Below the pieces are notes generated by a model. It ran no database searches and had not been told where the DNA came from. It saw only the letters and a program-made list of their open reading frames with translations. Positions 1,054 through 64,000 of a stretch of 64,000 nt of DNA are shown piece by piece (position 1 is the first letter of the stretch; every line of letters begins with the position of its first letter). The stretch comes from Pristiophorus japonicus (lineage: Eukaryota). Made by a program: the position numbers and the translations under genes. The DNA is taken from the NCBI RefSeq assembly GCF_044704955.1, contig NC_091977.1, positions 12,462,001 through 12,526,000 on the forward strand, given 5' to 3'.

Positions 1054-2226
1054 TTCCCTCTCTCCCCTCCGATCCCCCCCCCTCCCGCTTCCCCCCTCTC
1101 TCCCCCTCCTTTCTCTTTCCATCCTCCGTGTCTCTCTCTCCCCCCGCCGTGTCTCTCTCTCGCCCCCCACCACCCCATGTCTCTCTCTCTCTCTCTCCCC
1201 CCTGTACATCTTTCCCTCCTCCCATGTCTCTCTCTCTGTTACCCGACCCCCCGCCGTGTCTCTCTCTCATTCACCCAATGTCTCTCTCTGTCTCTCCCCC
1301 CATCGCGCCGTGTCTCTCTCTCTCTCTCCCCCCGTGTCTCTCTGTCTCTCTGCCCCCCCATCTCTCTCTCTCCCCCTGCCCCCCACCTCTCTCTCCCCCC
1401 TGCCTGCCGCCACTTTCTCCCCCTTCGCCTGCTGCCTCTCTCTTCCCCCACCCCCGGCCGCTGCCTGCTCTCTCTCTCTCTCTCCCCCAGTTCTCCCCCG
1501 CACCCCCCACAGCCGTGTGTCTCGCTCTCTCCTCCCCCACCCTCCCCGTGTCTCTCTTTCTGTCTCCTCCCGCCTCGTGTCTCTCTCTCCCTCCCCATGT
1601 TGCTCTTTATCTCCCCTCCCAGCCTCTCTCTCTCTCTCTCTCTCTTCCCAGTCTCCCTCTCTTCCTCTCCTCAGTCTCTCTCTCTCTCTTTCACCCACCG
1701 TGTCTCTCTCTCTCTCTCCCCCGTGTCTCGCTCTCTGCCTACCGCCTCGCCTTTCTCCCCCGGCCCATCGCCTCTCTTCCTCTGCCCACCACCTCTCTCC
1801 CTCCCGCCCGCCTCTCTCTCCTCCCCGCTCGCCACCTCTCTCTCCTCCCCGCCCATCACCTCTCTCTCCTCCCCGCCCATCGCCTCTCTCTCCCCCCCTC
1901 CGCCGCCTCTCTCTACCCTCTGCCTATCACCTCTCTCTCCTCGCCTGCTCACCTCCTCTCTCTCCCCCCCCCCCGCCCACCACCTCTCTATGTCCCCGCC
2001 CGCCGCCTCTCTCTCCTCACCTCCCCGCCTGCCGCCTCTCCCCCCCCCCTCCCACCCGCTGCCTCTCTCTCCCTCCACCTCCCACCCACTGCCTCTCTCT
2101 CACCCCCAGCCACCGCCTCTCACTCCCCATTCCCCGGCTGCCGCCTGCTGCCTCTCTCTTCCTCCACCTCCCACCCGCTGCCTCTTCCTCACCCCCCAGC
2201 CTCCGCCTCTCACTCCCCCTCCCCAG
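1054..2226. repeat. ~1.2 kb C/T-rich low-complexity polypyrimidine tract
   Basis: Almost only C/T on the + strand, with (CT)n and cctctctctcctccccgcc-like units; the long S/L/P-rich ORFs are compositional artefacts. Confidence 0.95.
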
Positions 2227-2339
2227 GGCATCAGCAGCTGACCACGTTGCTGCCTGGAAGGCCAGGGATGGCCTCACCATTGCCTGATTTACTTCACTTG
2301 ATGCTGTACACACTGGCTACCACATGATGCGCCAGGTTG

Positions 2340-9991: not shown

Positions 9992-10021
9992 GTTAGGTAG
10001 AGGTTGCACTATGCTTTTGCC

Positions 10022-12094
10022 ATGAAGATAACCATAGCCAGCCTCAACATCAATGGCAGCAGAGAGGCACGCCGTAGATTTGACAATTTTTTGCTCCTGC
10101 GGGAGGGGAAATATGCGATGTGCTTCCTGCAAGAAACCCACACCGTTCCGGGAGACGAAGCCACGTGGCTCCTGGAATGGCAAGGAGAGGTCCGCATGAG
10201 CCACCTCACCGCCACTTCTAGTGGGGTGGCCATCTTGCTGGCCCCGCATTTTCAGCCGGAGATCTTGGGGGTCGAGGAGCCCGTGCCAGGCCGCTTGCTG
10301 CACGTAACGGTTCACCTGGGGGACGTGCCGCTCCATCTCGTGAACGTGTACGCCCCTCATCCCGGCCCGCAGCAAACGCGCTTCTTCGAAGAGGTGTCCG
10401 CTCTTCTTGGCTCCGTCGATGTCGGCGACTGCATTGTCCTCGGGGGGGATTTTAACTGCACCCTCGAGGCGAGGGACCGCTCCGGTGCCCCGCAGTGCAT
10501 GACGGCGATGGAGAAGTTGAGGGACCTGGTCGGGTCCTTCGACTTGGTGGACGTCTGGCGAAATCTCCATCCCGACTCCAGCGCCTTTACTTGGGTGAAG
10601 CCTGGAGTAGGATGGTCCAGAGTCGACCGCCTTTACGTGTCTCGGGCGTACGTTTCCTGCGTCCCGGCGGCCTCCATGCGGCCGGTGCCGTGTTCGGACC
10701 ACCACCTGGTGTGGGCGGAGCTCGCTTCGCTCCGCGCGAGGACGGGGTCCGCGTACTGGCACTTTAACAACCGGCTGCTGGAGGACGTGCGGTTCCAGGA
10801 CTCGTCCCGTCGATTCTGGTCCGACTGGAGAAGGAAGCAGGGGGGCTTCCCCTCCTTGAGGCTGTGGTGGGACGTGGGCAAGGCTCACGTCCACGTCTTC
10901 TGTCAAGAGTACGCGAGGGGGTCGACCAAGAGGCGGGCGGCCAGGGTCGGGCGCCTAGAAAAAGAGGTGCTCGACCTAGAGTCCCGTCTCGGTCAAGTCG
11001 TCCAGGACCCGGCCCTGCGGACGGTATACGAAGCGAAGAAGGCCGCGCTGAAGGACCTGCAGCTCGTCGGGTCCCGAGGCGCGTTCGTGAGGTTGCGGAT
11101 CCGGTTCCTGCGGGATCTGGACCGCGGCTCCCCCTTCTTCTACTCGCTGGAAAAAAGACAGGGTGTCCGTAAGCAGCTCTTGACGCTGCTGGCCGACGAC
11201 GGCTCTCTCGTCTCGGATCCGGAGGGCCTCAACAACAGGGCCCGTGAATATTACGGGGCCCTGTTCTCTCCGGAGCCGTCCAGCGAGGAAGCGCGTAGAG
11301 TTTTGTGGGAGGATCTGCCGAAGGTCAGCCCGGAGGGCGCTGAAAATCTGGAAGCTCCGCTAAGCCTGGCGGAGCTGACCGGTGCCCTCGACCGGATCTT
11401 GAGGGGAAAATCCCCGGGGCTGAACGGGCTGACCGTGGAGTTCCACAGGGCGTTCTGGGACGTCCTGGGGGGCGACTACGCGCGGGTCCTGGGGGATAGT
11501 CTGGCGACCGGGGAGATGCCCCTCTCTTAGCGCAGGGCAGTCATCGTCCTGCTGCCTAAGAAGGGCAATCTCCGCCTCCTTAAGAACTGGCGCCCGGTCT
11601 CCCTCCTCAGCACGGACTACAAAATCTTCGCCAGGGCGATGTCTGCTCACCTTGGCGCCGTGCTGGACCACATAATCCACCCCGACCAGTCCTACACGGT
11701 CCCGGGCCGGACAATCCACGATAACATCCATCTGGTCCGGGACCTCATCCATCATTCCCAGGAGGCTGGTCTGTCGGTCGCCTTCCTATCCCTCGACCAA
11801 GAGAAGGTGTTCGACAGGGTGGATCACGACTACCTGCTCGGAACTCTGCGCGCTTTTGGGTTCGGGACGCATTTCGTCGCCCGGATCCGACTTTTGTACG
11901 CCGCCGCGGAGTGTCTGATTAAGGTTAACGGGTCCATGACGGCGCCCCTTCGCTTTGGGAGAGGGGTGCGCCAGGGATGCCCCATGTCCGGCCAGTTATA
12001 CGCCGTCTGCATGGAGCCTTTCCTGCGCCTCCTGCGGACGAGGTTGACGGGACTGGCTCTGCAAGGGCCGGGCGTGGAGGTCGTCCTCTCGGCT
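10022..12094 (+). pseudogene. Tx1 ORF2 (APE endonuclease + N-terminal RT), in-frame TAG at 11528-11530, ends before YADD
   Basis: MKITIASLNING, LQETH, VNVYAP, GGDFN, SRVDRLY, SDHH, KNWRPVSLL, LDQEKVFDRV, GVRQGCPMSG, then VVLSA and truncation. Confidence 0.9.
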
Positions 12095-17121: not shown

Positions 17122-17508
17122 AGCTTTCTGTCAGTGGTTGGACAATGACCATCGCGGATACAGTGAGTGCTGAGGAAGGGAGGTCCGCTGTCTTACCGTG
17201 CAGTTTCACCCACCCACCCACTGATCGCCCGCTCACCGGCACTGTGAAATGGTTCAAAGGTCACAAAGGGAAGGTTATTTTTACCTGCACGTATTCTGGT
17301 CTGGGCCATTCACAGATCGAGCTGTGTGAGAATGTGAGACAGCAGGAAGGTGGGAATCGATTCAGATTCGTGGGAAACCTCAGCAATAATGATGTCTCGA
17401 TAATGATGGAATGGCTGAGCCAGGCGGACAATGCTGGTTATCTGTGTCTTGTGAAGCTCAATATTGACAAATTTGGAACATCGTTAGGAACGCGTCTGAG
17501 TGTGAGAG
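17122..17508 (+). CDS. Ig V-set exon V1, Siglec-15-like, paralogue A (phase 1/1, 387 nt)
   Basis: Acceptor ...ctctccacag|, donor AGAG|gtgagg; WTMT..VSAEEG.SAVLPCSFTHP, KWF, extra Cys pair IFTC...ELC, RFRFVGN..NDVSI, D...YLC, GTRLSV. Matches the recalled Siglec-15 V-domain pattern. Confidence 0.88.
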
Positions 17509-18339: not shown

Positions 18340-18690
18340 CTGCTAGTGGAAATGGCTCAGTGGTGAGAGGGACCAAGGGAGCTTCGGTTACATTGCCCTG
18401 TATGTTCACACCCAGCAACTACACCAACCTGACCACTGTTACATGGATGAGGAAGGAGCCCTACCAACACTTAGTCACATTTAGAGCCCAATCAAATGGG
18501 TCTTGGACAACTGTAAACTGTGGAAATCGGTACGAGCTCATCGGGAACCCAAAGGAGGGAAACGCTTCAACCAGGATAAAGCAGCTGAGTGTGAAAGACA
18601 ACCACACTTACCTGTGTCTGGTGGAGTACAAGCCATGGCTCAATTATTAACGTCTGATCCAGACTGAGACATGTCTGCAGCTCGTACATG
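18340..18690 (+). pseudogene. Ig V-set exon V2, paralogue A, in-frame TAA at 18648-18650
   Basis: Acceptor tttcctcag|, donor CATG|gtaaga, 351 nt; GASVTLPC, VTW, RYELIGNPKEGNAS, D..TYLC; TAA where copy B has CAA. Confidence 0.85.
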
Positions 18691-28709: not shown

Positions 28710-28770
28710 ATGAATTCTCTCTACGTTTGGCTTCCCACAGTCCTGCTGTCGGTCTCGGTGCAGGGTCGCA
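28710..28770 (+). CDS. Candidate signal-peptide (leader) exon of Siglec-like paralogue B
   Basis: ATG with G at -3; MNSLYVWLPTVLLSVSVQ(GR); two phase-1 donors (G|gtcgca after 28764, A|gtaggt after 28770); both join in frame to V1 LSVSG-WTM, completing a plausible cleavage site. Confidence 0.62.
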
Positions 28771-34750: not shown

Positions 34751-37700
34751 ATAGAAATATTGGGCCCAAATTTCCACAGGATAAAAAACGGACGCCCCTT
34801 CGAGCTGGGCGCCCGTTTTTCGCGCCTAAAAACGGCGCCGGAAAAAAAACGCGCGATTCTGGAGCGCCCTGCAGCTCCTTGTCTGTTTGGCGCGGCGCCC
34901 AGGGGGGCGGAGCCTACACTCGCGCCGATTTTGTAAGTGGGAGGGGGCGGGTACTATTTAAATTAGTTTTTTTCCTGCCGGCAATGCTGCGCATGTGCGT
35001 TGGAGCGTTCACGCACGCGCAGTGTGAAGGAAACAATGGCACTCGGCCATTTTTGTAGTTCTTTGTAGCTGTTTAATTTTTGAACTTTTTTTAATAAAAG
35101 CACATTGCCATCAGCACATCAGCACTTGCAACCTTCTCACTGTCTCCTTCCTCCCCCCGCGGGAACGAACGGGCGCCTCCTCCTCCTCCCCCCGCGGGAA
35201 CGAATGGGCGCCTCCCCCCGCTCCCCGCGGGAATGTACGGGTGCCTCAACTTGTGAGGCTTTCTGCAGAATTCTCCGTGGCTGGAGCACTTTCACACAGG
35301 TAGGAAGATGGTTTATTTAATCTTTTCTTTGCTTATAAATGTTTATTCAAGTTGGATTTATTTGTATAATATTTGTAGAAGTATAAATAAGGATTTATTG
35401 TAGAATTTAATGGCTTCCCATTCCCCCCCCCTCCCCCCCCACCTCGTTCTGGACGCCTAATTTGTAACCTGCGCCTGATTTTTTAATGTGTAGAACAGGT
35501 TTTTTCAGTTCTACAAAAATCTTCACTTGCTCCATTCTAAGTTAGTTTGGAGTACGTTTTCACTGTGGAAACTTTCAAATCAGGCGTCAGTGGCCGGACA
35601 CGCCCCCTTTTGAAGAAAAAATTCTGTTCCAAAGTAGAACTGTTCTACCTGACTAGAACTGCAGAAAAAAAAATGTGGAGAATAGCGATTTCTAAGATAG
35701 TCCGTTCTCCACCAGTTGCTCCTAAAAATCAGGCGCAAATCATGTGGAAACTTGGGCCCATAGAAACATAGAAAATAGGTGCAGGAGTAGGCCATTCGGC
35801 CCTTCTAGCCTGCACTGCCATTCAATGAGTTCATGGCTGAACATGCAACTTCAGTACCCCATTCCTGCTTTCTCGCCATACCCTTTGATCCCCCTAGTAG
35901 TAAGGACTTCATCTAACTCCCATTTGAATATATTTAGTGAATTGGCCTCAACTACTTTCTGTGGTAGAGAATTCCACAGGTTCACCACTGAAGAAGTTTC
36001 TCCAGGTGAAGAAGATTCTCCTCATCTCGGTCCTAAATGGCTTACCCCTTATCCTCAGACTGTGACCCCTGGTTGTGGACTTCCCCAACATTGGGAACAT
36101 TCTTCCTGCATCTAACCTGTCTAAACCCGTCAGAATTTTAAACATTTCTATGAGGTCCCCTCTCATTCTTCTGAACTCCAGTGAAGTAAAGCCCAGTTGA
36201 TCCAGTCTTTCTTGATAGGTCAGTCCCACCATCCCGGGAATCAGTCTGGTGAACCTTCGCTGCACTCCCTCAATAGCAAGAATGTCCTTCCTCAAGTTAG
36301 GAGACCAAAACTGTACACAATACTCCAGGTGTGGCCTCACCAAGGCCCTGTACAACTGTAGCAATACCTCCCTGCGCCTGTACTCAAATCCCCTCGCTAT
36401 GAAGGCCAACATGCCATTTGCTTTCTTAACCGCCTGCTGTACCTGCATGCCAACCTTCAATGACTGATGTACCATGACATCCAGGTCTTGTTGCACCTCC
36501 CCTTTTCCTAATCTGTCACCATTCAGATAATAGTCTGTCTCTCTGTTTTTACCACCAAAGTGGATAACCTCACATTTATCCACATTATACTTCATCTGCC
36601 ATGCATTTGCCCACTCACCTAACCTATCCAAGTCACTCTGCATACTCATAGCATCCTCCTCACAGTTCACACTGCCACCCAACTTAGTGTCATCCGCAAA
36701 TTTGGAGATACTACATTTAATCCCCTCATCTAAGTCATTAATGTACAATGTAAACAGCTGGGGCCCCAGCACAGAACCTTGCGGTACCCCACTAGTCACT
36801 GCCTGCCATTCTGAAAAGTACCCATTTACTCCTACTCTTTGCTTCCTGTCTGACAACCAGTTCTCAATCCAAGTCAGCACACTACCCCCAATCCCATGTG
36901 CTTTAACTTTGCACATTAATCTCTTGTGTGAGACCTTGTCGAAAGCCTTCTGAAAGTCCAAATATACCACATCAAATGGTTCTCCCTTGTCCACTCTACT
37001 GGAAACATCCTCAAAAAATTCCAGAAGATTTGTCAAGCATGATTTCCCTTTCACAAATCCATGCTGACTTGGACCTATCATGTCACCTCTTTCCAAATGC
37101 GCTGCTATGACATCCTTAATAATTGATTCCATCATTTTACCCACGACCGATGTCAGGCTGACCGGTCTATAATTCCCTGTTTTCTCTCTCCCTCCTTTTT
37201 TAAAAAGTGGGGTTACACTGGCTACCCTCCACTCGATAGGAACTGATCCAGAGTCAATGAAATGTTGGAAAATGACTGTCAATGCATCCACTATTTCCAA
37301 GGCCACCTCCTTAAGTACTCTGGGATGCAGTCCATCAGGCCCTGGGGATTTATCGGCCTTCAATCCCATCAATTTCCCCAACACAATTTCCCGACTAATA
37401 AGGATTTCCCTCAGTTCCTCCTCCTTACTAGACCCTCTGACCCCTTTTATATCTGGAAGGTTGTTTGTGTCCTCCTTAGTGAATACTGAACCAAAGTACT
37501 TGTTCAATTGGTCTGCCATTTTTTTGTTCCCCGCTATGACTTCCCCTGATTCTGACTGCAGGGGACCTACGTTTGTCTTTACTAACCTTTTTCTCTTTAC
37601 ATATCTATAGAAACTTTTGCAATCCGTCTTAATGTTCCCTGCAAGCTTCTTCTCGTACTCCATTTTCCCTGCCCTAATCAAACCCTTTGTCCTCCTCTGC

Positions 37701-38094
37701 TGAGTTCTAAATTTCTCCCAGTCCCCAGGTTCGCTGCTATTTCTGGCCAATTTGTATGCCACTTCCTTGGCTTTAATACTATCCCTGATTTTCCTTGATA
37801 GCCACGGTTGAGCCACCTTCCCTTTTTTATTTTTACGCCAGACAGGAATGTACAATTATTGTAGTTCATCCATGCGGTCTCTAAATGTCTGCCATTGCCC
37901 ATCCACAGTCAACCCCTTAAGTATCATTCGCCAATCTATCCTAGCCAATTCATGCCTCATACCTTCAAAGTTACCCTTCTTTAATTTCTGGACCATGGTC
38001 TCTGAATTAACTGTTTCATTCTCCATCCTAATGCAGAATTCCACCATATTATGGTCACTCTTCCCCAACGGGCCTCGCACAACGAGACTGCTAA
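34751..38094 (-). mobile_element. CR1 LINE of a second subfamily ((CATAGAAA)n tail on +), with a 635-aa open RT frame at 35948-37855
   Basis: KSPGPDG, YRPVSLTS, LDFQKAFDKV, GVPQGSVLGP, FADDTK; nested in the plus-strand CR1. Confidence 0.92.
34762..35759. mobile_element. Non-autonomous TIR element (Harbinger-type MITE), 998 bp
   Basis: TIRs GGGCCCAAATTTCCACA / TGTGGAAACTTGGGCCC (1 mismatch); inserted in the CR1 tail repeat; CpG-rich, with three ~30-bp ccccgcgggaacgaa units at ~35150-35245. Confidence 0.85.
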
Positions 38095-52149: not shown

Positions 52150-52979
52150 TGCCGGTGTGCAGACAATGGTGGACTCCCAGAGAGACCGCACAGATCCAGA
52201 CCTCATGATGTCATGGGCGATGTGGCAGCTTCCATTGCAGAACAGGCGGAAGCAACGCAACGTCTTGGTGCTGCATAGAGTCGATGGTTGCTTGCATGGT
52301 AGCTTAGACTGCTATCGTGCAGTCTCAACTTGATGCCACACAATGTCTTGGTGCTGTCTTTCAGTCTCAGCTGCATGTCTCGCAAGCTCTGACTGCTGCC
52401 ATCGTCACTGGGTCCATCACAGTCAACCGGGGATCTCAGTGTCACAGCAGCCCAGCAATCTGTCCTGCAGCAGATTGGTGGGGATGCTGAGGTGCTGGCC
52501 CGGGTGATTGGCAGTGGGTCAGTGGAGCAGGAACCTGCTGTCCTCTCTCAGGTTGACAGCATTCCTGATCCCACCACTGCCACTCCACCATTGCCCTTGT
52601 CGCTGCCTGTCACCCAGCCAGCCCAGACAGCCGCCGCCCAGCCTGAGGTGTTGCAGTCTGCATCCGGGCCTTCCAGGCCCAGAGCTGGTCGAGGGCGTCC
52701 TGCAAGGCCATCTGTAGTCTCTTGCCATGCTGCTGCCACAGGGGACACTCTGCGAAGGAGTATTAGGATAGGTCAACAAAAGAGGGGATATAAGGAAATG
52801 CACAAGGGTGATGAATAATACACATTTATACATTTTATTGTTGTTTGATAAATGTTGATTGGAATGTTTAATGTTTGCTGTTGTCTCTCATTTCCATCTT
52901 CTGGTTTTGTAAGGAAGCGCAAAGTGATGTGGTGATGGGGACATCCAGAGGAACCGGGAAGTAGGATGGAAGTCAGTGG

Positions 52980-53925
52980 AAACGACCTCCCTTGCAGGAT
53001 TGTAATGGAGTCGCTGCCTCCTCCTTCACGGCTGTTGCTGCTCCTCCTCGTCCTCCTGCTGTTGCTCCTCCACCTGCTCCTCCTGGTCCTCCTCCTCCTC
53101 CTCCTGAGGTGGTGCTGCTATGCCTGGCGGCAATGGCTGTGCCCTCATGATGGCCAGGTTGTGCATGATGCAGCAGACAACGATGAATCGGGACACAGGC
53201 GAATACTGCAGGACTCCTCCCAAGCGGTGAAGGCAGTGGAAACGATGTTCCTGGTGGCAGCATGGCTCTCATTGTATGAGTGCTGGGCAGGAGTGGTGGG
53301 GTTGTGGAGGGGAGTGATGAACCAGGTGGATAGCGGGCTCATTTTGGGGCTGGAACAGAGCTGGCACAAAATGAAGGTGTCGTGGTTGCTGCCAGGATAG
53401 CGGGTATTGACGCTGACTATTCTGCATGTATGGTCGCACAGCAACTGCACATTCAGAAGCGTTGGCCTTTGCAATTATGGAAGATCTCAGGATTGCGATG
53501 CGGTGCCCTCAAAGCGACGTGCAGTCGATGGCACCCTGCACCATGGGGAGGCCCACTATCTTGGCAAAGCCCTGCATCATGGGGAAGGAAATGTAATCCC
53601 TCCTCCTTCTGTGCAGAGCATCTGTGACCTCGCGAATGGAGCAATGGACGGCAACTTGGGAGAGTTGGAGATGTCCCCTGTTGCACACTGGAACGATCCA
53701 TTGCTGTAGAAATTGACCTTGACTGCCACAGAGAGCTGTCCTTAGCCTGGTCTGAGACCCGAGGTCTGGTTGCAGCAGATGACAGAGCTCTGTGACCACG
53801 TCCTTGCAGAAACGCAGCCTTTACACACACTGCTCCTCAGTGAAATCGATATAGAACTGCTGCCGGAATACCCGGGGAGAGTAAGGCCTCCTGTTGCCAG
53901 CCCTCTGGTGCCTTCTTCCTCTGAT
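52980..53925 (-). pseudogene. Harbinger DDE transposase, copy B, multiple deletions
   Basis: PMVQGAIDC, NVQLLCDH, YPGSNHD, CCIMHNLA. Confidence 0.82.
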
Positions 53926-54446
53926 GAAACGACAGAAATGCTTTAACTTCAAAGCTGCTGTGAGTTATTCAGGGGAAAGGTTAGGAGGCAGGAGACTCTT
54001 TGAGGTAAACATCGCTGCTATGGGTCCAACAGCCACTCTGCCTAACTGTTGGAAAACAGAAAAAAGTAATGGCCGACAGAAAATAGTTTTCAAGATGGTG
54101 CCTTTAAATAGCGCTGCTCCATCCCGTTCCCGACTGCGACTAGACAGCTGAAGCTATCATTGTCATCGCCAGATGCTAAGGTAGGTTGCTCGGGGCAATT
54201 TAACTTCCGGGGCGGTAAGGGGACGATGACATCATCATCGCCGTGCTGCCTCGTAGCGCCTCCGCAAAACCCCCCGCCCAATTTCGCGGGGCCGATTTTT
54301 GTGCCGCGACCGGGCGAAAACCATTTCCCAGTGATAAAAGGGGCAATTTCACCCTCTCAGTATAGTGTCTCGTACCCGTAGTATGTTTTCCAAACACTGA
54401 GTCTGCCCCCGTGCTGTGTTAATGTTGTCTCGCTCTCTCTCCACAG

Positions 54447-54839
54447 AGCTTTCTGTCAGTGGTTGGACAATGACCACCGCGGATACAGTGAGTGCTGAGG
54501 AAGGGAGGTCCACTGTCTTGCCGTGCAGTTTCACCCACCCACCCACTGATCGCCCGCTCACCGGCACTGTGAAATGGTTCAAAGTGCACTCACCATTTAA
54601 CAGGGTTATTTTTAACTGCACATATTCTGGTCTGGGCCATTCACAGGGCGAGCTGTGTGAGAATATGAGACCGCAGGAAGGTGGGAATCGATTCAGATTC
54701 ATGGGGAACTTCAGGAACAACGATGTCTCGATAATGATGGAGCGGCTGAGCCAGGCGGACAATGGTCGTTATTGGTGTGGTGTGGAGCTCAATATTGACA
54801 ACTTTCAAGCATCGATAGGAACGCGTCTGAGTGTGAGAG
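54447..54839 (+). CDS. Ig V-set exon V1, Siglec-15-like, paralogue B (phase 1/1, 393 nt, open)
   Basis: ccacag| acceptor and AGAG|gtgagg donor; VLPCSFTHP, KWF, IFNC...ELC, RFRFMGNFRNNDVSIMMERL..AD..RYWCGVE, GTRLSV. Confidence 0.9.
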
Positions 54840-55676
54840 GTGAGGAGCACTGCTCAGGGGCTGTCGCTGCTCCGATAGCTCAGTGAGGAAAGGCTCCACC
54901 TGGTCTGGTCCTGAGCCACACGGATCAATAAACTCTCAGCAGCCCCAGGCTATGAAGAGGGAATATTGCGCGGGGTTCCTGTTCCTGCTCATTTTCTAGT
55001 GACTCCTGCTGGAAGGTGTGTTCTTGGACATTGGATGAGACATTGGGTCTGCCTGTGATGCTCTCCACAGTCAAATATTCCATTGACACACATTGACCAG
55101 GCTTGTGCTCTAAGGAAGGCCATTTGGGTGAGGCAAACACAAATTAGATAGCTTTCTTTCAGTAATACTATTTTGAGATACAGTATATGAGCAATTTGAT
55201 ACGGCATTTAACCTCGACTAATGCAGTGTGATGCAGGTAGGTAGTATCAACACAAAGTACACTTATCATTTACAGGGAACAACACTGAAAGTGGTTCAGA
55301 GAGAAAGGGATCCAGGTTTTATTGTGCACACATCACTCAAGGTACAGGAACAATGCAGAGAGCCATAGCCAAAGCAGACAGGGTATTGGGTTGTATTAAT
55401 AGAACCATTCAATGTAAGTCAAAGGACACCACCTCCCACTTTCTGCTAGTCTGAGAAACTTTCCTTACCTCCTATCCTCTGTTTTCTGTTTTGTAGCCAT
55501 CTCTCAATCCGTTCTGCTACCCGGTCCCCTGACCCCACATTCTCTGGGACCCTTACTGGCTGAGTACTACACTGGGCAATGCCTCTACCCATAGACCACA
55601 GGGAGAGCTCTGAACTGAAACAAATTAAAGTTCTCATCAAGATGCTGATATATTGTGATGTCTGTCCTTTCCTCAG

Positions 55677-56027
55677 CTGCTAGTGGAAATGGCTCAGTGG
55701 TGAGAGGGACCAAGGGAGCTTCGGTTACATTGCCCTGTCTGTTCACACCCAGCGACCCCACCAACCTGACCACTGTTACATGGATGAGGAAGGAGCCCTA
55801 CCAACACGTAGTCACATTTAGAGCCCAATCAAATGGATCTTGGACAACTGTAAACGGTGGAAATCGGTACGAGCTCATCGGGAACCCAAAGGAGGGAAAC
55901 GCTTCAACCAGGATAAAGCAGCTGAGCGTGAAGGACAACCACACTTACCTGTGTCTGGTGGAGTACAAGCCACGGCTCAATTATCAATATCTGATCCAGA
56001 CTGAGACATGTCTGCAGCTCGTACATG
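55677..56027 (+). CDS. Ig V-set exon V2, paralogue B (phase 1/1, 351 nt, open)
   Basis: cctcag| acceptor and CATG|gtaaga donor; B-strand Cys, C-strand Trp, D-x-x-x-Y-x-C; five N-x-S/T sequons. Confidence 0.88.
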
Positions 56028-56759: not shown

Positions 56760-59700
56760 TGTTATGTATTGTCCAGGTACATTAAATGTATAGTTACAAT
56801 GGTGCGCCACAAAGGACACTGTGGTGGGAGACCCGAAAGTACCTGCGAGACAGAGTATAAAAGGCTGCCCACCACACCTGTGAGGCACTCTGGAGTTACA
56901 CAATAAAGGACTAAGGTCACAGCAGTTACTACAACACCAGACTGTGTGGAGTCAGTGATTTGGGTGCGACATACATCACATTGGCGACAAGGACACAGAC
57001 GAGCTCTTCACACAACCATGGCTACTTTGGGCAGGCTAAAGGATTTCACAGAGGGTAATGACTGGGATGCCTTTACGGAAAGGCTCGAGTACTACTTTAT
57101 CGCAAACGACCTGACAGGGAACACGAACGCACTGATGGAGAAGCGTAAGGCGATATTGCTGTCCAGTTGTGGCGATGAGGTTTACCGTCTCGTCAGGGAT
57201 TTGCTGGCACCCGCGAGCGCCAAGGACAAATGATATGAGCAGCTGATTGAACTCATTCATAACCAACTGAAACCGAAGGAGAGCATTCTCACGTCCAGAC
57301 ACAAATTCTACCACCACTGCAGACCTGAGGGCCAGGATGTCACCAAATATGCTGCGGACATCAGGCGACTTGCGGCGCCGTGCGATTTTGGCACATACCT
57401 TGACGAGGCGTTGCGAGACGTCTTTGTTATGGGGATTGGCCATGAGGGTCTCCTTCACAAGCTGCTATTTGCTGAATCTACAGTCAGCCTGCAGCAAGCC
57501 ATCATCATCAGCCGGGCATTTATGACCTTGACTTGCAGCACCCCAAGCAGATGATCCACACGGTCTCGAACCCGGCAGGTACTATTCACAGGATAGCGCC
57601 CGTCACGGACAAAACTGCAGAATGTGTCTCTGCCCAGGGCAGGGAGCACGGACCTCCGGGTCCTGGAACTCAGAGTCCGCCGAGGGGGGGCTAATCGAGT
57701 GGCACCATGCTGGCGCTGCGGAGGAAGCCATGGGGCTCACCGGTGCAGGTTTGTGGAGTATACGTGCAATACCTGCCACACGAAAGGCCACCTTCGGCGT
57801 ATGTGCAAAAGAAACACGACTCACCGTGTGGCTGAGGAGATGGTAGATGATCCGCTATCCAGCGAGGAGCATTGTGGCTTGGCTCTACGGGCATCCCAGC
57901 CCCAGGTAGAAGAAGATGATGCGTTTGGACTGTATACGTGTACCGACGATTCAGCCCCAGTGATTATGGAAGTCAAGATTAGCGGAGTCCCAGTGAGTAT
58001 GGAAGTGGACACGGGGTCGGGTCAGTCGCTGATGAGTCAGGAAACTTTTGATAAACTGTGGATTAACCCGGCTGCACGACCCAAGCTGGTCCCGGTCACG
58101 GCGAAGCTGCGTACCTACACCAGGGAACTGATACCTGTTCTCGGCAGAGCGGATGTGCAGGTATCTCACGGGGGCGAGACGCACGGTTTACCTTTGTGGA
58201 TCATTGCAGGCGATGGGCCGACGCTACTCGGCAGGAGATGGATGGGGAAGGTCCGTGGGAGCTGGGAAGACTTCATTGCTCCACAGACCGCTGTCCCCCC
58301 GTGTTCACAGGCAGAGCAGGCCTCCACCTTCGGATCGGATGGCAGTGAAGGAAGCGTGTGTGGGGTTGGGCAGAGCAGCGGTGGCTGCCGACTCTCCCCC
58401 TGCAAAGTCTGAGAGTGAGAAAGTGGCGCTGGAACCAGCAGCAGCACCGACCGAGCTGGAGAAGAGAGAAGGGCTTCGACGGGCTGCTCCAGCAGGCACC
58501 ACCGGCCCGCAGGCAGAGGCGGCCGTTCGCGGGGCTTGCAGTGGGAGGAGCGGTGAATCGGCAGTTTCGGGAGCGGGACTCGCTCGGCGACATGGTGAGG
58601 GCCGGTGCTCCGAGGAGCGGGGCTCGTTCAGGATCGGCTGCGGCAGTGAGGAGGTCAGCTTCGGAGGACGTGTGTGTGTGTGTGTGTGTGTGGCGGATCT
58701 CGAGAGAGAGAGGGAGAGCAGGCAGCAGCACAGCGAGTTCAAGATGGCGGCGAGCCTCGTGGCAGAAGAGTTCTGCAGAGAGAGGCAGGCAGGACCAGCA
58801 GAGCACCTAAAATGGTGGCGCCCAGTCGAAACCTCGTGGGAAAAACAAAATGGCGTCTTAAAAGGGAAATGTACCCGGGAGTCTTAAAGGGGCCTTACAC
58901 CGTTGGTGGTCCCCACAAAGAGACTTTTGTAAGGGCAAGAGCGAGTCAAAATGATTATTGTGATTTGTATGATGACGTGATTTATGACAAGAGTTAATAT
59001 TTTGGTGCTAAAATGATTACTGTGATTAAAATGATTGATATGATTGGTGAAAAGAGATAATATCACAATGCACAGTTAAAAGGGTTAATGGATCTGTGAC
59101 TAACATGACTAATGGATTAATGTGAGTTCTGATTTTATGTGATTTATGCAATGGTTCAGCGGTTGCAGACAAGCTGCAAAGGCAACTATTTTCTGAGAAT
59201 AGAGGCAACGCACTAGTTGCGATACCCTGTCTCAGCGCAGCCCATTACCTCAGGCAAAAAGGGTCAGTATGCCACCACCATACCTCACCCAGTGGAGCTG
59301 GGATTAAATAACTATTCAGTGTACCTGCAACCTTTTGATATAATTCTTCAATGCATCTATATGTATCATAGAAATATACTCTCTATGTGTACCTGCTTTC
59401 TATTGGAGATTATGTTTGTGTACTTGTATCACCCATGTAAGGACTGCGAATACCACATACTTGCACCGGATCGCAAACATAATCTCTACATGGGGGCTGG
59501 GGGGAGAGAGGGAAGTGGATGTCATGGACTCACACTCCCAAATCAACCAGGACCAACAAAGCCGAGGTTACCGACAATGTGCTTTTGGAACTGGGGGGGC
59601 GGGGAGTGAGATGTTATGTATTGTCCAGGTACATTAAATGTATAGTTACAATGGTGCGCCACAAGGGGCGCTGTGGTGGGAGAACCGAAAGTACCTGCGA

Positions 59701-59832
59701 GACAGAGTATAAAAGGCTGCCCACCACACCTGAGGGGCACACTGGAGTTACACAATAAAGGACTAAGGTCACAGCAGTTACTACAACACCATACTGTGTG
59801 GAGTCAGTGATTTGAGAGCTACATACATCACA
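56760..59832 (+). mobile_element. Non-autonomous Gypsy element (LTR-PBS-gag-protease-noncoding-PPT-LTR), only in copy B
   Basis: 221-bp LTRs 56760-56980 and 59612-59832; PBS TGGCGAC; gag ATG 57018; two CCHC knuckles; MEVDTGSG protease; no RT or IN; flanks GGGGG / GAGAG; empty site at ~19425. Confidence 0.92.
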
Positions 59833-59939
59833 GAGAGTGGTCCTTATTTTAAACATGAAAGGTGGGTGCCCGCAATATAAGGTGCGAAAATCATGGGCAC
59901 CCACTAACCAAAGGAGACTGCGTACATAGTAAACGGGTA

Positions 59940-60298
59940 GTAAGATGAGGGGCAGGGCCGATTCGGGACTAGAAAACAGACGGACGCATTGAGGCAGAGG
60001 GTATGGCTGAGGTGATAAATGAACACTTTACATCTGTCTTCATCAAGGAAGAAGATGCTGCCATAAACATAGTGAAGGAGAAGGTAGAGGAGATACTGGA
60101 TGGGATAAAAATTATGAAGAGGAGATAGTAGAAAGGCTGGCTGTACTTAAAATAGATAAACCAACAGGACAAGATAGAATCCATCCAAGGACGCTGAGGG
60201 AAGTGAAGGAAGAAATCACGGAGGTACTGACCATAATCTTCCAATCCTTCATAGATACGGGGCTCATGCCAGAGGATTGGAGAATTGAAAATGTTACA
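59940..60298 (+). mobile_element. CR1 fragment (homologue of 20130-20490)
   Basis: PEDWRIENVT; collinear with copy A up to 60298. Confidence 0.8.
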
Positions 60299-60484
60299 GC
60301 AAGCGCAGGCAGCGGAAAGAGCGTGCGGCAAACCTGTCCCACCCAACCTTTCCCTCAACGACTATCTGTCCCACCTGTGACAGGGACTGTGGTTCTCGAA
60401 TTGGACTGTTCAGCCCCCCGAGGACTTATTTTAAGATTGGAAGCAAGTCTTCCTCGATTCCGAAGGACTGCCTATGATGATGAT
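60299..60484 (+). mobile_element. RTE-type LINE 3' end
   Basis: RRQRKERAAN...CPTCDRDCGSRIGLFS zinc-finger-like C-terminus and ggactgcctatgatgatga tail. Confidence 0.75.
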
Positions 60485-63400
60485 TGTCATGTTTGTAACC
60501 TTCACATAACTGTAACCAATATGTAACAACACTGTACACTGTATACAACTGTGAAATACACACCTTGACCACAGGGGGTGAACTTGTGGGAGACACTCCT
60601 TACCTGGTCAGCCAGGTGCTTAAAGGGAGGTTCCACGCAGGCTCAGCACTCCTTGGTCCCGGGGAATAAAGGTGCAGGTCATGAGTGACCTTGTCTGCAG
60701 TATATGCCTCATGTGAATATGTTCTAGAGTTGAGAACTCTACATCTGGCGACGAGAAACGGGAATCACTGAACCACAAGGATGGCCACCGGTAGCACAGA
60801 GGAACGTTACTGTGTGGGTGAGGACTGGGACGATTTTGTGGAGCGACTCCAGCAGACCTTTGTCACAAAGGACTGGCTGGGAGTGGAAGCGGCTGACAAG
60901 CGGAGGGCGCATCTACTGACAAGCTGCGGGTCAAAAACGTACGCGCTGATGAAAGACCTGCTTGCACCTCTCAAGCCGGCCGACAAGTCCTTCGAAGAGC
61001 TCAGCCAACACCTGAAACCGGCGAGCAGCGTACACATGGCCCGGCACCGGTTCTACACACACAGGCGTCGGGAAGGGCAAAACATCTCGGACTTCGTTGC
61101 AGACCTGAGGTGCTTGGCCAGCTTCTGTAAGTTCACAGACGCCTGCAGGGGGGGAGATGTTAAGGGACTTTTTCATTGAGGGCATTAGTCCTGCCGGTAT
61201 TTTCAGGAAGCTTATTGAGGATAAGGACTTGACTTTGGAAAGGGCAACTTTGATAGCTCAGACCTTCTTGGCAGGGGAAGAGGAGACCAAGATAATTTGC
61301 GCAGCAGCCCTGGTTTTAACGTTGCGATGAACCAGGGAGTTAATGTTGCAAAAGTGATACAGAACCCCGCAGGCAGGCAAGGGCAATTCGACACCGCCCA
61401 GGCAGCAACAGGCTCTAGGGTGGGACAGCAACAGAGACAATGGCAGGAGGATCGGCAGTTCACGCCATCAAGAGGAACAATGCGTCCCGTGATGCGACCA
61501 TTGACACCCACCACCAGAGTGCTTAGAAACAACCAAGGGGACAATCAGAGAGGAATTCCTGGTAACAGCCCCTTTGTGAACAACAGTCTCAGCCAATGCT
61601 GGAGATGCAAGTTCCAGCAGTTCACCTGCAGGAATTGTAATGCCAGAGGACATTTGGGTAGAATGTGTCAAAAGGCTGCAGCGAGGCTAATCTATGAAAC
61701 AGAGGAATCAGACGAGGGGTCTGCAATGCAGGATGATGCCTGGGGCCAAGCCATGGATGCTGAGGTTCAGAGGGTTCATGTGGCTGACGTCCGCAGCTCA
61801 TACACCAAAACGCCACCCATGATGCTGAAAGTTTTATTGAATGGCATCCCGGTGCACATGGAGCTGGATACGGGAGCCAGCCAGCCTTATGAGCGTCCAA
61901 CAATTTGAGAGACTATGGCCACACAGAGCTATCAGGCCCAAACTGGAACGCATTGACACGCAGCTGCGCACGTACACCAAAGAAATCATCCCTGGGCAGT
62001 GCAAACCTGGTGGTAACACACAATGGATCACAGAACCGCCTGCCACTCTGGATTGTTCCGGGAAATGGCCCCGCACTTTTGGGAAGAAGCTGGCTAGCCG
62101 AGATGAACTGGAAATGGGGAGATGTGCACACCATTTCGTCTGTGGAGCGAAGTTCATGCTCGCAGGTCCTACAAAAATTCGAGTCACTGTTTCAACCCGG
62201 TGTCGGAACATTCAAGGACACTAAAGTAGTGATACGCATCACTCCGGATGCCAGACCAGTGCACCACAAAGCCAGAGCGGTGCCGTACGTGATGCGTGAG
62301 AAAATTGAGAGTGAATTGGACAGACTGCTCAGAGAGGGCATAATTTCACCCATTGAATTCAGTGACTGAGCAAGTCCCATCATTCCTGTCCTTAAAGCAG
62401 ATGGCTCGGTCAGGATCTGCGGCGACTACAAAGCCACCATCAACCAAGTGTTGCTGCAAGACCAATACCCGCTACCGAGAGCGGAGGACCTTTTTGCCAC
62501 GTTGACAGGTGGCAAGCTGTTCACTAAGTTGGACCTCACTTCAGCCTACATGACTCAGGAACTGGCTGAAGAATCCAAGCTTCTGACCACCATCACGACG
62601 CACAAGGGACTATTCATCTACAACAGGTGTCCATTTGGGATTCGTTCAGCGGCTGCAATCTTCCAGAGGAACATGGAAAGCTTGCTCAAATCTATTTCCG
62701 GCACAATCGTATTCCAAGACGACATCCTTATAACGGGTCGAGACACCGAGGAACACCTCCACAACCTGGAGGAGGTGCTATGCCGACTGGACCGAGTCGG
62801 CTTGCGGCTGAAAAAGGCCAAGTGTGTGTTTTTGGCCCCAGAGGTCGAGTTTTTGGGCAGGAGGGTTGCCGCAGATGGGATCAGGCCTACCGAATCAAAA
62901 ACGGAGGCGATCCATCGTGCGTCCGGCCCGGCAACACATCGGAGTTGCGATCGTTCCTGGGACTTTTGAACTATTTTGGGAAATTCCTGCCTAACTTAAG
63001 CACATTGTCGGAGCCGTTACATGTGCTCCTGCATAAGGGTTGTAACTGGTTCTGGGGGGACTGTCAGGAACGGGCTTTCAACAGGGCGCGGAATCTGCTT
63101 TGTTCTAACAAACTGTTGACTTTGTATGACCCCTGTAAAAAACTAGTTTTAACATGCGATGCATCATCATGCGGGGTTGGGTGTGTGTTGCAGCAGGGAA
63201 ATGACGACGGCCGACTACAACCGGTGGCTTATGCCTCCAGGTCGCTCTCCCCGGCAGAGTGTGATTACGGCATGGTCGAAAAGGAAGCACTCGCTTGTGT
63301 TTATGGTGTGAAAAAGATGCACCAATATCTTTTCGGCAGGCCATTCGAGTTAGAAATGGATCACAAGCCGTTAACATCCCTGTTGTCCGACAGCAAGGCT

Positions 63401-64000
63401 GTCAACGCCAATGCGTAAGCTAGCATACAGCGATGGGCTCTCACGCTGGCTGCGTATGACTACACCATACGGCACCGGCCTGGCACTGAAAATTGTGCTG
63501 ACGCACTCAGCAGGCTTCCGCTGGCCACCACCGAGGGGGCAGCGGAGCAAAGCGCTGAGATGGTCATGGCTGTTGAGGCTTTTGACACCGCAGGCTCCCC
63601 CATCACAGCCCGCCAGATCAAAATCTGGACAAACAGAGATCCCCTCCTATCCATGATAAAGAAATGTGTCCTGACTGGGAATTGGGCGCCCGCCCACAGG
63701 GCGTGCCCCGATGAGGTCAGACCGTTTTAGAGATGGATGGATGAGCTCCCCATCCAAGCCGACTGCCTACTATGGGGCAGCCAGGTGGTCATGCCCCAGA
63801 AAGGAAGGGAAGCGTTCATCAGGGAACTCCACAGCGAGCACCCTGGCATTGTGCTAATGAAGGCCATTGCCCGGTCACATGTATGGTGGACGGGGATTGA
63901 CTCAGACCTGGAACACTGGGTTCGCAGGTGCACGACGTGTGCCCAGCTGGGCAATGCCCCCAGGGAGGCCCCGCTCAGCCCGTGGCCCTGGCCCACCAGG
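60485..64000 (+). mobile_element. Gypsy retrotransposon, 5' LTR to start of integrase (runs off the window), frameshifted
   Basis: LTR 60485-60743; PBS TGGCGACGAG 60746-60755; gag ATG 60781; MELDTGAS; FQDD; LTCDASS; DHKPL; integrase HHCC near the window end. Confidence 0.93.

Follow-up and report, generated by a model that had tools for sequence, protein, structure and literature searches.

Two copies of a V-V receptor unit

The window analyzed here is a 64,000-nt stretch of the Pristiophorus japonicus genome (G000:C1:12462001-12526000). It contains two copies (A and B) of a unit consisting of a first V-set exon (V1), an intron, and a second V-set exon (V2); the copies are approximately 90% identical across 4.3 kb. 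Copy B, on the plus strand, comprises a leader exon (28710..28770), V1 (54447..54839; a Siglec-15-like V-set domain with an open frame and canonical splice sites), an 837-nt intron (54840..55676), and V2 (55677..56027; a second V-set domain that lacks the Siglec arginine and is 3.7% different from that of A). Spliced together, the leader, V1, and V2 give 268 codons with no stop. A transmembrane exon encoding a lysine and a short tail exon are located at G000:C1:12530085 and 12530565, 4 kb beyond the end of the window, and the tail is only a few residues long and lacks a tyrosine motif. With its leader, both V domains, the lysine-bearing transmembrane segment, and a short tail all present, the gene of copy B is intact, and its product is predicted to be an activating receptor. 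The C-C' loop of its V1 (54584..54604, plus strand) reads VHSPFNR. The VHS portion is common to the paralogues c3 and c5 (see below), and two extra codons (54593-54598) are private to B among the seven copies compared; they place a Phe at the position of the Siglec-15 contact residue Tyr87, restoring a longer loop.

Copy A has an open V1 frame (17122..17508, plus strand), and its V2 exon (18340..18690, plus strand) is interrupted by an in-frame TAA (18648-18650). The leader of A, which lies immediately upstream of the window, carries a 1-nt insertion that leads to a stop at codon 5, and no transmembrane exon for A was found between its V2 and the leader of B. Copy A is a triple-broken pseudogene (leader frameshift, V2 stop, and absent transmembrane exon).

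Mobile-element debris is dense in the window (10001-11527, 35951-37855, 52500-54050, and 56760-64000). On the basis of motifs, we take the debris to include frames of LINE type, insertions resembling LTR elements downstream of V2 of copy B, and, upstream of each V1 exon, a decayed segment resembling a transposase. Degenerate tandem repeat arrays are present at window positions 1055-2227 and at G000:C1:12536150-12538534. A further fragment (L039; G000:C1:12445861-12446541) is located upstream of the window and presumably resembles a retroviral envelope transmembrane subunit.

Relationship to Siglec-15

Siglec-15 was the best match of V1 among PDB sequences (E value, 6e-17; next match, 9e-8) and also its best fold match (E value, 3e-11; TM, 0.76), using a structure model with a pLDDT of 87 (approximately 60 at residues 60 to 80). 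CD33-type matches to V1 were weak (E values of approximately 3e-4 or worse). Features shared with Siglec-15 (PDB 7zoz; available text of PMC10264397, PMC6941304, and PMC7226832) include the V-set fold with an extra disulfide pair in the C' region, the equivalents of Trp44 and Tyr154, and the FTHP and ELC motifs. C57 and C70 of V1 align to the extra pair C95-C104 and hardly vary across a 66-row alignment; the Trp and aromatic contact positions of Siglec-15 likewise align in V1. The transmembrane lysine of B and c2 (not c5) is located in a similar PLGxK context, and in Siglec-15 this lysine couples the receptor to DAP12 (PMC6941304, available text). The shark genes differ from Siglec-15 in that both domains of B are V-set (the second being PF07686; E value, 1e-15), whereas the second domain of Siglec-15 is C2-set; in that they form a multicopy family with an ITIM-tailed member; and in that the equivalent of Arg143 has been lost in B, c2, and A.

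The available text of PMC10264397 describes Arg143 on strand F of Siglec-15 as binding sialic acid, with W44, Y87, R153, Y154, and E155 nearby, and reports that R143A abolishes binding. The equivalent codon 111 is CGT in c3, c5, c6, and c7, GGT (Gly) in B (54779..54781, plus strand) and c2, and CTT (Leu) in A (17448-17450, plus strand, within V1). Arg is present at this position in 52 of 60 outside homologues.

A family with two receptor types

A search of the genome returned 13 matches, of which seven (B, A, c2, c3, c5, c6, and c7) were at 76 to 100% identity; these seven V1 copies, all from one assembly, were compared. UniRef proteins labelled Pristiophorus japonicus match the c2 exons and the c5 transmembrane and tail exons at 100%. 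The transmembrane exon of c2, with its lysine, is the same as that of B, and c5 has an uncharged transmembrane segment and a tail ending in VIYAAV, consistent with the ITIM pattern described in the available text of PMC7226832. Similar ectodomains (B and c5 are 80% identical in V1) are thus joined to opposite types: a transmembrane lysine with a short tail in B, and an uncharged segment with VIYAAV in c5. V2 of c3 carries a frameshift, and two of the seven copies are broken. No transmembrane exon was seen for c3, c6, or c7 in the DNA examined; the contigs end 4.6 kb from c6 and 6.9 kb from c7. The seven copies form a Siglec-15-related V-V receptor family with transmembrane-lysine (B) and ITIM-tailed members, which we predict from their sequences to be paired activating and inhibitory receptors.

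In a 43-row tree, in which labels other than source names were assigned by us, the seven V1s formed one clade (96/97) inside a 14-row clade (96/84). All named rows of the larger clade are from sharks or rays, and bony-vertebrate Siglec-15 rows form a separate branch. Named relatives from Heterodontus, Chiloscyllium, Mustelus, Narcine, Hemitrygon, and Stegostoma comprise both transmembrane types; both transmembrane/tail types recur in other elasmobranchs while the seven V1s cluster together.

The family is part of a wider cluster at 11.2-13.3 Mb of G000:C1 (L008, L009, L012, L023, L024, and L031), where less closely related Siglec-15-like genes have V-V, V-C2, and V-V-C2 layouts; V exons are paired with Siglec-15-like C2 exons in other genes of the cluster. 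A V-C2 gene near 12.72-12.74 Mb retains the Arg and has an uncharged transmembrane segment, and the pair L009 and L012 also differs (Arg versus Gly) at the Arg143-equivalent site. Another dead relic of the family, a truncated V2 fragment with a stop, is located on the minus strand at G000:C1:12405861-12406031 (L022). With a Siglec-15-like query, the 14 best matches in the genome were all in this cluster or its unplaced copies. Two unplaced contigs (G000:C4015 and G000:C4093) repeat the region downstream of B at approximately 99% identity, and each has a further V1-V2 gene, which suggests tandem units of roughly 200 kb or structural haplotypes. We take ATP5F1A and SLC14A to be neighbors of mammalian SIGLEC15; in this genome, matches to both families are on C2, separated by 54 Mb and not beside the C1 cluster.

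Divergence of V1 between copies A and B

V1 differs between A and B at 37 of 387 aligned nt (9.6%). Outside the C-C' loop, 19 codons change an amino acid, with four more inside it, and six changes are synonymous; the loop itself (VHSPFNR in B; GHKGK in A) includes a 6-nt indel. The first 295 nt of the intron contain seven differences (2.4%; Fisher p 1e-4 versus the exon), and codons 25 to 45, the B-C segment, are the same in both copies. All of these counts agree with the original prediction, which had been made from the window. Its further claim that the exon diverges faster than the intron describes a real contrast but overstates it. The whole intron differs at 37 of 831 positions (4.5%; p 8e-4 versus the exon) and all non-coding DNA in the A/B block at 190 of 3468 (5.5%; p 0.003), and the 485 nt upstream of V1 are as diverged as the exon (40/463; 8.6%; p 0.72). 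Within the contiguous A/B block, conservation equal to that of the chosen slice is seen in only 8.5% of 295-nt intervals, and a 126-nt run identical in A and B across the V1 donor (54816..54941, plus strand) accounts for much of its low divergence. Exon-sized intervals reached 37 differences in 8.8% of cases outside V1 in this block and in 22.6% of cases over all aligned A/B DNA. The contrast is inflated because the intron slice is conserved and because V1 and its flanks have different genealogies.

Four multinucleotide codon pairs do exist between A and B, as had been claimed (codons 67, 109, 111, and 120), but two of them are not single events. Judging from the paralogues, codon 111 reflects two separate single changes from CGT (to Gly in B/c2 and to Leu in A) rather than one double change, and codon 109 likewise changed from CGG to TGG or CTG by separate single changes. 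The pairwise A/B dN/dS was 1.06 to 1.41, which was not significant under any kappa, with a V1 dS of approximately 0.08. All four outward codons of strand F differ between A and B. The claimed clustering of changes on the ligand-binding face was borderline in this pair alone (11 of 19 changes on the front sheet versus 7.1 expected; p 0.056). The A/B pair by itself proves little; the seven genomic paralogues carry the case.

Probable gene conversion among V1 exons

Among the 29 informative sites of V1 in the seven copies, 42 to 43% of site pairs were incompatible, compared with a mean of 15% (sd, 13%; maximum, 52%) in 25 simulations without recombination. When B, A, and c2 were compared, the site labels occurred in runs (140 changes of 271; p 0.0002). 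Upstream of V1, 12 consecutive informative sites (54330..54432, plus strand) are identical in A and c2 and different in B, which likely represents a conversion tract (p 0.002); the longest run of sites shared by A and B (7 sites) had a p value of 0.06. Within V1, B differed from both other copies at 23 of 39 sites in this comparison. With respect to origin, 16 of the 37 A/B differences involve alleles that other paralogues also carry; the remainder comprise 13 B-private and 8 A-private changes. The copies c3 and c5 align with B over the exons and <100 nt of flank only, so that exchange with them would be confined to exons. A PHI-like permutation test was not significant (p 0.08 to 0.95). From the site patterns, V1 is likely a gene-conversion patchwork among the paralogues.

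The near-identical pair c6 and c7 independently repeats the excess of V1 divergence over its flanks. These copies align over 35 kb at 0.8% mismatch, and their V1s differ at 20 of 387 positions (5.2%) versus 14 of 1802 (0.8%) in adjacent non-coding DNA (p 7e-8); V2 differs at 6 of 351. Mismatches become more frequent toward the contig end, and 3% of the intervals there match the count in V1. Nine of the 20 V1 differences are alleles of other copies, many matching c5, and the 11 private ones comprise nine nonsynonymous and two synonymous changes. Approximately 20 kb upstream of the two V1s is almost identical, followed by an abrupt rise in divergence.

Probable selection on the predicted GFCC' face

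Codon models and conversion tests were self-written, in place of codeml and GENECONV; for the codon models, branch lengths were scaled from M0, with F3x4 frequencies and 6 beta classes, and codons 46 to 52 were dropped. For the seven V1s, M2a improved on M1a by a 2dL of 24.4, with approximately 24% of sites at an omega of 5. In this likelihood ratio test (LRT), nominal false positives were frequent among neutral simulations that included recombination, but no run reached 24.4 (0/35, maximum 21.4; 0/21, maximum 18.7). These nulls are few (56 runs), and the 35-run set was matched on total distance at a higher mutation setting (approximately 31 synonymous changes versus 17 observed). For V2, the corresponding 2dL of 16.4 was inside the range of the neutral recombination nulls. 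In V2, too, the variation is clustered, falling in the B-C loop (codons 26-27; window positions 55755-55762) and the F-G loop (codons 98-104; window positions 55970-55990).

We also counted distinct mutations, a measure that conversion cannot multiply. The whole-domain V1 ratio was 1.1 to 1.6 and never significant (p ~0.25), and the nonsynonymous density of V1 was twice that of V2 (p 0.002 to 0.025). Variable codons were found at 11 of the 13 predicted outward positions of strands C, C', F, and G (16 changes), compared with a single one of 13 on strands A, B, D, and E (p 1e-4). Outward positions were set by strand alternation after the alignment had been seen, and this was one of six site sets tried. 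The ratio of distinct mutations at the front outward codons to the domain synonymous rate was 3.3 (2.9 to 3.9 in subsets without B or without pseudogenes), with p values of 0.001 to 0.01 in five fully neutral settings with recombination (700 runs each; simulations without a CpG hypermutability term). The other five site sets gave p values of 0.003 to 0.27, with the whole front sheet borderline (p 0.046 to 0.069), and a circular-shift control of the enrichment at sheet level was not significant (p 0.33). Synonymous changes were not enriched on the front sheet.

Across all paralogues, a site-restricted excess and mosaicism were found; neither the whole-domain dN/dS nor the PHI-like test was significant.

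Interpretation and alternatives

The most probable reading, which we hold with reasonable though not strong confidence, is that copy B encodes a predicted activating receptor of an expanded Siglec-15-related family in sharks and rays, whose V1 exon has likely been shaped by both conversion and diversifying selection on predicted outward residues of the GFCC' face. The original prediction had named diversifying selection or gene conversion; with the paralogues added, both are supported, acting together rather than as alternatives. The exons would be the only long stretches alignable among all copies, and conversion from distant paralogues, including the inhibitory-type c5, would be exon confined. 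Selection may retain newly arisen residues on the ligand-binding surface, with the back sheet left unchanged.

It is rather unlikely that no positive selection was involved, with V1 being a homology island in which a neutral conversion mosaic and relaxed constraint let the front face drift and kept the back face constrained. Such a process fits the nonsignificant whole-domain dN/dS (~1.2), the raised synonymous divergence of V1 and the equally diverged upstream flank, the 16 shared alleles among the 37 A/B differences, the two broken copies, and the circular-shift result. It accounts poorly for V2, which is equally a homology island and yet has half the nonsynonymous density of V1, and for the front outward codons, which exceed fully neutral simulations with recombination and 5 to 10% double mutations (p ≤ 0.01). 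The lack of synonymous enrichment on the front sheet and the 9:2 private changes of c6/c7 against a 0.8% background also argue against it.

We consider it quite improbable that A and B diverged adaptively as two functional receptors and that A was inactivated only recently. The V1 frame of A is open with its core residues intact, and four private replacements are present, three of them at codons 111, 113, and 123. However, A carries three separate lesions, its eight private V1 changes are evenly divided (4 synonymous and 4 nonsynonymous, versus 0:9 in B outside the loop; Fisher p 0.03), and its V1 shows no excess of divergence from c2 (17/387 differences versus a 5.5% background). That copy A was once functional, as the original prediction had concluded from the exon/intron contrast, does not follow from that contrast, given that most private change is in B and that A is triple broken; A is a dead duplicate, and its V1 is for the most part that of the A/c2 lineage. 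Least probable of all is an assembly or haplotype artefact, with mosaic exons made from collapsed or misphased copies: two copies occur on unplaced contigs whose sequence duplicates a portion of the C1 region (approximately 99% identity), and c6 and c7 could be allelic or could have duplicated very recently, but A, B, c2, c3, and c5 are in distinct insertion contexts on one contig, and the differences respect codon and structural position, unlike assembly error.

The combination of conversion and selection favored here has known parallels. As described in the available text of PMC6288428, the paired CD33-related Siglecs 5/14 and 11/16 have activating and inhibitory members with similar first Ig domains and gene conversion; Ig1 evolves fast relative to Ig2, the essential Arg has been lost repeatedly, and dead activating copies are frequent. 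The shark family shares all of these features (paired types, conversion, a fast first domain, Arg loss, and dead copies). It differs in that CD33-related Siglecs are V-C2, whereas the shark genes are V-V on a Siglec-15-like V domain with weak CD33-type matches, and the likeness is likely convergent. In common with the paired-receptor homogenization described in the available part of PMC3210942, V1s of opposite types cluster within the species while transmembrane/tail types are common across species; the shark conversion differs by mostly shuffling short tracts, and V1 of close copies is more, not less, diverged than the flanks. Skate MDIRs (PMC3031540, available text) are also multigene activating/inhibitory V-domain receptors of cartilaginous fish. 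They are described there as CD300/TREM/pIgR-like. The shark V1s are Siglec-15-like, and in the 43-row tree, their clade was separate from rows that we labelled pIgR/CD300-like by motif, with long branches.

The evolutionary process itself is already well known from mammalian Siglecs. Its operation on a Siglec-15-like V-V scaffold in elasmobranchs looks new: no description of such a family was found in the open-access main texts searched. The available part of a whale-shark paper contains one generic mention of Siglecs, and that of PMC13358205 contains no shark passage.

By analogy with Siglecs 5/14 and 11/16 and with paired receptors, microbes may exploit the inhibitory member, conversion may keep the activating copies similar, and selection may remodel the binding face, including loss of the Arg. 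Activating copies without the Arg have probably left classical sialic acid binding and could act as decoys or counter receptors when a microbial ligand exploits the inhibitory member that retains the Arg. We tentatively propose, while thinking it somewhat doubtful, that sharks and rays independently built an arms race resembling that of the CD33-related Siglecs on the otherwise conserved Siglec-15 scaffold, in which an Arg-bearing ITIM receptor is accompanied by activating copies that repeatedly drop the Arg under positive selection and switch to nonsialic microbial ligands, with exon-confined conversion. Siglec-15 has been described as a Siglec of high conservation, and mammals are known to have paired Siglecs that evolve fast. 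If the proposal is true, a paired Siglec-15-derived family across sharks and rays, in which the binding face is under selection and the Arg has been lost more than once, would represent the same solution to host-pathogen conflict arisen twice.
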